Of a stretch of DNA of 64,000 bases, positions 41,017 to 42,090 are shown piece after piece (position 1 is the stretch's first letter; each line of letters begins with the position of its first letter). Under the pieces are notes generated by a model. That model was not told the DNA's origin, ran no database searches, and saw only the letters and a program-made list of their open reading frames with translations. The position numbers and the translations under genes were made by a program. Where the stretch lies: positions 224,001-288,000 of the forward strand of contig CALSNU010000004.1 in assembly GCA_943787795.1 (NCBI GenBank), read 5' to 3'. The DNA is from an uncultured bacterium (lineage in GTDB: Bacteria; Planctomycetota; UBA1135; GCA-002686595).

Positions 41017-41098
41017 GGTGGCTCTCGACTCTAAGGGACGGAGCCCGGCCCAGGAACGGTGGCCAGGGAGTCCCCGGCAGCTGAGACCCGGAATAGCA

Positions 41099-41132
41099 AG
41101 GCACCCCGGCGGAGCGAACCGCCGGGGTGCCT
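41099..41132 (-). terminator. Hairpin terminating the candidate selenoprotein gene
   Basis: AGGCACCCCGGCGG-AGCGAA-CCGCCGGGGTGCCT, 14-bp stem, about 55 nt after the final TGA. Confidence 0.7.
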
Positions 41133-41185
41133 GCGTGACGAGGCGCGACGGGCGCCCGGTGTGGGGCGCGCAGCCGCGAGCGCGA

Positions 41186-41836
41186 TCAGAGGATGTAGGT
41201 CTTGTCCTTCTTGATGCTCTTCATCTTCACCTTGTGCTTGGCGAGGGCAGCCTTGAGCTTGGCCTCGTCGAGCTTCTCGTCCTTCTTCATCTGGATGATG
41301 ATCTCCGGACCGGCGTAGACATCGGCGACGTTGTCCCCGAGGGACTTCATGAGGGTCTCACGGACCCTACCGGCGGTGTCGCTTCATGTCAGGCCGGGCG
41401 TCTTGGCGACGTAGGCCGCCTTCGCCCGCGCCGACTCGCGGCTGGTGAGGGAGACCCACTTGAGGCGCTGCTTCTCGATGGCGGCCTTCAGGGCCTTTTC
41501 GTCCACCTTGACCCCCTTCTTCAGGGTGAAGCTGGCGCGGGTGCCGCTCCAGAAGATGCGTTCGATGTCGTCGTCCTCGTCGAGGACAGTGAGGAAGGCC
41601 GCACGGGCCTTCTTGCCCGCGCTTCAGCCCTTGCCGGAGGCATGGAGGGTCCAGACGGTGATCTTGTCCTCCTTGGCCTCCTTCTTCTTCGTGTCGCCCT
41701 TGACGGCGGGGCCGTCGTCACCCTTCTGGGCGATGGGCTTGGAGGTGGGGCCTTCCTGGTGGGCGGTGACGAGAGCGCTTGAAGCGATCCCGGCCACAGC
41801 CACGAGCAGGGCTCCCTGAACCAGTCTTGTGATCAT
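41186..41836 (-). CDS. Candidate exported selenoprotein, 216 aa, two tandem HMA-like domains with in-frame UGA (Sec) at codons 71 and 151
   Basis: The frame continues with normal codon usage through TGA 41624-41626 and TGA 41384-41386: signal peptide...VWTLHASGKG-U-SAGKKARAAF...VDEKALKAAIEK...YVAKTPGLT-U-SDTAGRVRETL...LDEAKLKAALAK...TYIL*. A SECIS-like hairpin follows each UGA. Confidence 0.8.
41352..41368 (-). promoter_or_regulatory. Putative bacterial SECIS element 2
   Basis: AGGGUC-CGUGA-GACCCU; 21 nt between the UGA at 41384-41386 and the loop. Confidence 0.7.
41594..41612 (-). promoter_or_regulatory. Putative bacterial SECIS element 1
   Basis: GAAGGCC-CGUGC-GGCCUUC; 18 nt between the UGA at 41624-41626 and the loop. 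Confidence 0.7.
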
Positions 41837-42090
41837 GAGATGAGGGTTGCTGAGCGCGGGCCAGGAAGCGGCCCGCTGGTTTGTATTACCCGGTGTTCTT
41901 CGCCGCGGGGCTACCGCGCGGACGAGAGGGTTGTGTGAAAACCTCGCGCGCCTCCGGATGACCCTGGGGAATATGCCCCTACCGCGTCAGGGCGCGGCAT
42001 GCCGAATTAGGGTTTACCCTCATTTATGTGCGGCAGCTTCGCTCTCGAAGAGGGAATTGGCCCGGTTCGCTCCCCATCCGCCAGGTACCC

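Follow-up and report, generated by a model that had tools for sequence, protein, structure and literature searches.

We identified a concealed selenoprotein on the minus strand (41186..41836) of a 64,000-nucleotide stretch, here termed the window, from the genome of an uncultured member of the Planctomycetota. The gene encodes a predicted exported protein of 216 amino acids in which two internal UGA codons are almost certainly read as selenocysteine (Sec), judging from codon conservation, adjacent hairpins and the Sec machinery of the host. Each Sec falls in one of two domains related to the HMA family of metal-binding proteins. From sequence comparison and structural models we propose that the protein may work on its own in the periplasm, its selenolates trapping or buffering soft metals, a reading to which we assign a probability of roughly 0.45.

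A gene interrupted by two in-frame UGA codons

Under translation table 11 the locus yields an ORF of 70 amino acids (41624-41836, minus strand) ending in TGA, after which the same frame remains open for 79 codons, and for 65 more after a second TGA. A preliminary description of this DNA had anticipated that standard gene callers would split the gene, and ordinary calling does cut what is a real gene into pieces. Translation of TGA as U gave the 216-amino acid read-through product that had been described, with U71, U151 and no Cys, and both unit sequences quoted there agree with it letter for letter. Host-like codon usage was likewise borne out, both TGAs being among 57 genome-wide candidates flanked on either side by coding-like codons, where they rank 2nd and 24th.

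All parts of the gene lie on the minus strand. A predicted signal peptide without a lipobox (about residues 1–25, 41762..41836; cleavage site estimated) precedes a poorly conserved Lys/Asp-rich linker (residues 26–56, 41669..41761). Domain 1 (residues 57–137, 41426..41668), a diverged HMA-like unit predicted to follow a beta-alpha-beta-beta-alpha-beta order, has an invariant Gly in its beta2-beta3 turn, and domain 2 (residues 138–216, 41189..41425) has the HMA fold. The true stop (41186..41188) is a third UGA lacking a SECIS, and homologs end variously in TGA, TAA or TAG. A GC-rich hairpin is present 3′ of this stop (41144..41178), as the preliminary description had noted, but the terminator role suggested for it is unsupported: the hairpin is no more stable than shuffled sequences (z 0.22), has no U-tract and was not called by a terminator scan.

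The proposed export is consistent with a hydrophobic stretch ahead of the core, both here (12-residue hydrophobicity 2.18) and in 34 of 42 homologs, the others scoring 1.77–1.96 against a threshold of 2.0; a loose pattern finds a lipobox-like motif in 20 of the 42. The calculated pI of 9.7 indicates a basic surface. The gene is divergent from a pyruvate phosphate dikinase gene, and a xylose-isomerase-like gene and an FGGY kinase lie downstream of it. Public runs with a matching stretch are marine, seawater or estuary metagenomes. Contigs from RNA-labelled marine runs span the gene, and a second study yielded a contig confined to it (41096-41850). These are at most a hint of transcription, since the runs were found with the gene itself and contigs cannot show transcription.

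Selenocysteine machinery and conservation of the UGA codons

The alternative that this is not a selenoprotein, the TGAs being true stops, errors, or Trp or Gly codons under a variant code, appears extremely unlikely. In the host genome (G000, 84.9 % complete) selA, selB and selD scored over their cut-offs and a single tRNA-Sec was found, supplying the machinery looked for; selD itself carries an in-frame TGA. There are two tRNA-Trp(CCA), and the only tRNA with a TCA anticodon is tRNA-Sec. TGA is the main stop, ending 2333 of 2829 long ORFs, and therefore UGA is not reassigned genome-wide.

We found the protein in 21 of 41 related genomes, and every one of the 17 other genus members keeps both TGAs. 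A search of the 201 genomes of the order with a profile of 14 sequences gave matches in 35; 30 of these matches fell below E 1e-15, of which 29 have two TGAs and one has TGC at site 2. Across the phylum, a profile built from 44 sequences found matches in 63 of 401 genomes, with E below 1e-27 in 11. The prediction that homologs would keep TGA or Cys at the two positions was upheld in a hand-picked set of 43 homologs, from which near-duplicates, L066 and sister forms were left out. Codon 71 (41624..41626; motif G-K-G-U-S-A-G) is TGA in 43/43, and codon 151 (41384..41386; motif G-L-T-U-S-D-T) is TGA in 42/43 and TGC in one. Together with the database protein P0002, which has Cys at both sites, the TGC variant provides natural Sec/Cys pairs, a further point against the non-selenoprotein alternative.

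Conservation continues beyond the first TGA: against seven close relatives pN/pS was 0.07 for the stretch separating the TGAs and 0.11 for that following the second one, and purifying selection past both codons counts against true stops. Sequencing error, raised in the preliminary description, is excluded because the TGAs are conserved across dozens of genomes. Sec use is the norm in this lineage, selA occurring in 193 of 201 genomes of the order and 288 of 401 of the phylum. Of the 63 genomes of the phylum matched by the profile, 61 have selA, which also argues for Sec, although kin in this comparison are not independent; the two exceptions are weak, stop-free matches. With selA so widespread, co-occurrence inside the order is uninformative.

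SECIS elements downstream of each UGA

Each internal UGA is followed by a hairpin with a 5-nt CGUGN loop on a stem of 6–7 bp, 18 nt away at site 1 and 21 nt away at site 2, so that the loops start 19 and 22 nt after the UGA. SECIS 1 (41594..41612) has a 7-bp stem and the loop CGUGC (-10.8 kcal/mol), and SECIS 2 (41351..41369) a 6-bp stem and the loop CGUGA (-8.6 kcal/mol), which is altered in the Cys variant. Both fall within the bacterial consensus set out in the parts of PMC13188914 used here: a loop of 3–9 nt with G in its first two positions, a stem of 4–16 bp, a distance of 16–37 nt from the UGA (also given in the part of PMC10778597 used) and an MFE at or below -7.5. The host fdhA carries a hairpin of identical geometry.

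CGT encodes the loop Arg at 72 of 74 homologous sites, one of the two exceptions being the Cys variant, whereas it makes up 7.3 % of Arg codons in long ORFs. A hairpin rule, fitted after inspection of the hairpins concerned, holds for 29/37 first sites and 35/37 second sites. Among the TGAs that close long ORFs it picks out 5/2333, including that of fdhA, and over all TGAs the rate is 0.63 %. Of 17 other candidate Sec codons, selD and 10 further ones escape the rule. In the hairpin alignment 88 % of cells at site 1 and 96 % at site 2 are paired, with 6 and 8 two-sided changes respectively; none of the 500 shuffles or slid controls reached these values. By two further covariation measures site 2 did not exceed its shuffles, and tests of this kind are inflated by relatedness. 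In wider sequence context a competing hairpin is predicted at site 1 that would hide the SECIS 1 loop, a point in favour of the non-selenoprotein alternative. The sequence tests argue strongly that SelB, guided by the hairpin after each UGA, would insert Sec twice, the third UGA, having no hairpin, ending the protein.

Tryptophan-containing homologs in sequence databases

Most of 106 database matches are fragments bounded by the two sites, and 13 of the 25 examined have W at both family sites. Homologs with Trp had been named in the preliminary description as a finding that would speak against Sec, and such forms do exist, which counts in favour of the non-selenoprotein alternative. Where they could be checked, however, they are TGA codons read under code 4. 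The W forms looked up stem from contigs of 0.8–3.2 kb, four of the ten members of the P0004 cluster end exactly before the W, and a metagenome contig 77 % identical to a W form has TGA followed by a SECIS at both sites. We take the W residues to be code-4 mis-calls, on the DNA of this one relative of one W form. A Trp or variant-code reading was rejected on the host tRNA set, its stop usage and the same relative. Three database relatives of the W form do have Cys at +4 of site 2, being themselves among these W-bearing sequences. The two-Sec family thus appears to sit in databases as fragments or with false Trp residues.

Two domains, one clearly of the HMA fold

The core was modelled with a pLDDT of 94 and a pTM of 0.83 as two beta-alpha-beta-beta-alpha-beta units. 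Of the two HMA-like domains that had been proposed, domain 2 is clear. The ten best VIA matches to its structure are all HMA domains, led by the N-terminal domain of ZntA (Z 9.8, rmsd 1.9 Å over 70 residues), and its profile matches CopA (E 1.6e-7) with U on the first Cys of GMTCAAC, in line with the suggested equivalence of GLT-U and GMT-C. The Sec also corresponds to the U of a canonical GMT-U-xxx-C lipoprotein encoded by the host. Domain 1 gave a more mixed picture. Its best Foldseek match is Atx1 (E 5.4e-4, TM 0.62), VIA ranks generic ferredoxin folds first, with the first HMA domain at Z 6.7 and 2.8 Å over 74 residues, and a profile search matched no HMA structure. It is homologous to domain 2: the two profiles align with a probability of 98.7 % (E 1.9e-16), unit 1 lacking one residue behind its U, and place U on U, confirming that the two Sec positions are equivalent. 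From this alignment we regard domain 1 as a diverged duplicate of the HMA-like domain 2. An MsrA-like reading of site 1 was rejected, the domain 1 profile scoring a probability of 0.4 % over 12 columns against the host MsrA.

Single-sequence searches of the protein gave nothing near a cut-off in Pfam or NCBIfam, no matches in a word-indexed protein search and chance matches only in a sequence search of the PDB. PF00403 did not match the query and matched 2 of 44 family members at E 0.001, the better reaching 23.7 bits against a cut-off of 24.8. No second Cys lies at +1 to +5 of either site in any of 43 homologs, and neither site has the two ligands of a CxxC/UxxC metal site. In 6 of 43 homologs the first domain, and in 9 of 43 the second, has a Cys in the beta2-beta3 turn, which adjoins the metal loop in the HMA topology.

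Sister proteins and origin of the tandem form

Wider searches reach exported proteins with GMT-U-xx-C or GMT-U-xxx-C motifs in one to three true HMA units, with signal peptides and mostly the same SECIS, as well as mixed-site intermediates. One sister, L070, scores 88.8 bits against PF00403. By their sequences these proteins appear to form a continuum from the lone-Sec family to true HMA domains. The CGUG-loop SECIS is absent from some sister units, P0122 being an example.

P0122 (G000:C2, L102:1483-1827, minus strand) is a lipoprotein with one canonical HMA domain and the motif GMT-U-GAG-C, likewise split at its TGA by table 11. It is the sole PF00403 match of the host genome and a second hidden HMA selenoprotein there. 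A link of this paralog to metal efflux was rejected, the nearby RND pump scoring as a multidrug type.

In a domain tree of 44 rows the first domains cluster together (95/94) and so do the second domains (97/98), on 76 columns only and with a bootstrap that had not settled; the pattern used to build it missed the sister units L070, L091, L100 and L102 and three second domains. The separate grouping implies that the duplication predates the spread of the family. Among distant forms, L084 (G239) has two adjacent TGAs at site 1 and none at site 2, and L057, L061, L064, L067-L069, L084 and L089 carry an extra N-terminal HMA-like unit without a Sec or Cys site.

Genomic context and candidate functions

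Of 155 ORFs called around 41 loci we assessed 115 flanking ORFs, dropping those that overlap the gene, and among these there was no metal transporter or regulator. There was also no conserved context beyond genus-level synteny with ppdK and the xylose-isomerase-like gene. The gene sits among housekeeping genes and is kept by the whole genus. P1B-ATPases were found in 8 of 18 genus carriers and in 3 other carriers; in the remaining 10 genus carriers none was found, carrier genomes being 70–94 % complete. G000 and nine other genomes of the genus (78–90 % complete) showed no heavy-metal P1B-ATPase, whereas 13 of 14 control genomes scored over the cut-off. MerT was found in 0 of 21 carriers, whose genomes are incomplete, and neither MerR nor CusA/CzcA scored above cut-off in the incomplete G000. 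Neither linkage to nor consistent co-occurrence with a partner transporter (MerT, P1B-ATPase) emerged from these incomplete genomes.

These results bear on whether the protein could be a metallochaperone of the MerP/CopZ type, serving an unlinked dedicated membrane transporter or a periplasmic metalloenzyme. The HMA fold, the export signal, the basic surface and the close MerP/CopZ-like sisters would suit such a role, as would the P1B-ATPases of the carriers that have them. With no metal transporter nearby and no P1B-ATPase found in 10 of 18 genus carriers, a MerP/CopZ partnership is unlikely. The gene is moreover under strong selection in the ten genus genomes in which a P1B-ATPase was not detected, MerT was found in no carrier, and no neighbor is conserved beyond the genus. 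We consider this role improbable.

The fold, the position of the Sec and the sister series instead point to soft-metal binding, and the missing second Cys and transporter partners favour a stand-alone trap or buffer over a classical chaperone. Selenolates have a high affinity for Hg and Cu(I). In the proposed mechanism the protein would be exported and adopt two HMA-type domains in rigid contact, with one selenolate of each displayed where helix 1 begins, the place of the first Cys in copper and mercury chaperones. Acting alone in the periplasm, the protein would capture at each Sec a single soft ion or monofunctional organometal (Hg(II), methylmercury, Cu(I) or Ag(I)), with any second ligand supplied by a small thiol, by another protein or, in members that have one, by the neighboring Cys of the beta2-beta3 turn. 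By analogy with the HMA topology the two Sec residues probably point apart and would form separate sites rather than a diselenide pair. HMA-type selenoproteins have been catalogued and linked to heavy-metal handling, according to the parts of PMC13188914 used here.

Several points weigh against a selenolate trap. A shared fold shows no function, and the metal binding proposed is read from sequence and models. The chelating second Cys is absent in all 43 homologs, no transporter or regulator partners were found, and a housekeeping setting with genus-wide retention is unlike that of a resistance gene. Dependence on selenium is an odd design for detoxification, as argued for another system in the part of 10.1101/2022.07.06.499078 used here. 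In the models, domain 1 alone fits generic ferredoxin folds at least as well as HMA domains (VIA-align).

The absence of a resolving Cys and of identified metal partners is also compatible with a periplasmic redox protein in which peroxide or some other oxidant would oxidise each lone Sec and thioredoxin-like selenoproteins would reduce it again, in the manner of peroxidases without a resolving Cys, the HMA fold serving as a scaffold. On balance we think this unlikely, while regarding it as the main rival. Several UxxC thioredoxin-like candidates occur in the host genome, and two AhpC/TSA genes are among the 115 flanking ORFs. Thr at +3 of site 2 in 30 of 43 homologs gives a UxxT pattern, which the parts of PMC13188914 used here list for GPx-like and OsmC-like selenoproteins, along with the expectation that most uncharacterised selenoproteins are redox proteins. 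The modelled fold, however, is not thioredoxin-like, no similarity to the host MsrA was found (the 0.4 % probability above), and since the SECIS constrains the residues after Sec, both UxxT and the invariant Arg may be a matter of RNA structure and not of catalysis.

A carrier or store of selenium or sulfur, holding Sec as a perselenide or selenosulfide or forming a reserve that tracks selenium supply through two recoding events, seems very improbable. One exposed chalcogen per domain and the almost uniform use of Sec in the order would be in keeping with it, and UxxG and UxxS motifs are listed for rhodanese-like selenoproteins in the parts of PMC13188914 used. No rhodanese, TusA or DsrE was found among the structural matches listed, which included no MsrA either, the 115 flanking ORFs revealed no linkage to sel or sulfur-relay genes, and two Se per 21 kDa would make a poor store.

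Returning to the selenolate trap, a bolder version would have a metal-chaperone fold rebuilt in these aquatic Planctomycetota, through loss of the chelating Cys and retention of one Sec per domain, as a single-ligand selenium device that captures or transforms monofunctional organometals such as methylmercury, in the periplasm and independently of any transporter. We hold this to be distinctly speculative, with the odds well against it. If true, exported multi-Sec HMA proteins would make up an unannotated series across the phylum, with UxxC and UxxxC forms at one end and the lone-Sec form as its end point. The family offers a natural series of Sec/Sec, Sec/Cys and Cys/Cys forms, with or without a partner Cys, on a small scaffold that is predicted to be well folded, making possible a direct test of what selenium adds at a metal-binding site, a question that the predicted heavy-metal selenoproteins pose.

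Further candidate selenoproteins of the host genome

A number of other G000 loci resemble Sec genes. The ORF at C5:48762-49658 (minus strand), a candidate cytochrome c-like selenoprotein, has a CxxCH motif, an N-terminus resembling a signal peptide and an internal TGA, behind which a hairpin with a CGUGC loop is spaced as at site 2. A candidate exported thioredoxin-like selenoprotein at C2:247100-248383 (plus strand) has a signal-like stretch, a TGA after a Cys-containing motif and a 7-bp SECIS-like hairpin. Three long ORFs, at C1:1248719 (plus strand), C3:277088 (plus strand) and C8:5572 (minus strand), terminate at a TGA behind which S-[S/T]-[F/Y]-W-R is encoded and a hairpin with a CGUGG loop is present; they are possibly a paralogous family with a late Sec. 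Further in-frame TGA candidates include C4:789560, C1:189924, C6:69376, C6:70103, C7:99960, C8:38656, C1:1014756 and C4:645494, among others; they have UxxC or known motifs, which we read as thioredoxin-like, GrdB/PrdB-like and FdhA. These frames suggest a large selenoproteome in the host genome, in an order of mostly uncultured Planctomycetota that is almost uniformly Sec-using and has many hidden selenoprotein candidates.

Comparison with known systems

HMA selenoproteins are already known; the exported tandem form with one Sec per domain is, to the extent of the 119-family catalogue and NCBIfam, uncatalogued. No such entry was recognised in the whole 119-family table of PMC13188914, and a search of the openly accessible literature gave no description of the family. 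The exported GMT-U-xx-C and GMT-U-xxx-C HMA proteins of Planctomycetota are likewise uncatalogued. These sisters (L070, L091, L098-L100 and P0122) share with the present family the signal peptide and commonly the CGUG-loop SECIS, but keep a second Cys and score as true HMA domains.

With HMA domains of PF00403 (MerP, CopZ/Atx1 and the N-termini of CopA and ZntA) the family shares the fold and the placement of Sec at the first Cys of GMTCxxC; it differs in having Sec for Cys, no second Cys, a score below the Pfam cut-off and a short beta2-beta3 turn. The tandem units recall CopA and the predicted export recalls MerP, whereas the modelled packing of the domains is unlike that of CopA or ATP7B tandems (rmsd 11–16 Å) and no transporter is linked.

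NCBIfam NF041115 (UxxU_metal_bind) is also an HMA-type metal-binding (seleno)protein with two Sec. That model is one 74-position domain with both Sec in UxxU, whereas the present family distributes them over two domains, one in each, at a distance of 80 residues, and the model gives weak matches in 3 of 44 family members, the best about 21 bits against a cut-off of 95. NF045683 (MerT_CopZ_Se) and the ATPase selenoprotein (TIGR01525, UxxC) also place Sec in HMA-related heavy-metal transport proteins, but these are membrane transporters, the ATPase keeping a Cys partner, while the present protein is soluble, predicted to be exported and Cys-free; no member of the family matches NF045683 at E 0.001, and none attains the cut-off of any of these three models. 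At the RNA level the arrangement resembles the fdhF-type SECIS/SelB system of Escherichia coli in its in-ORF hairpin and in the G at the second loop position followed by U. It differs in that the element is used twice in one short gene and has a near-invariant CGUG loop, which fixes an Arg codon.
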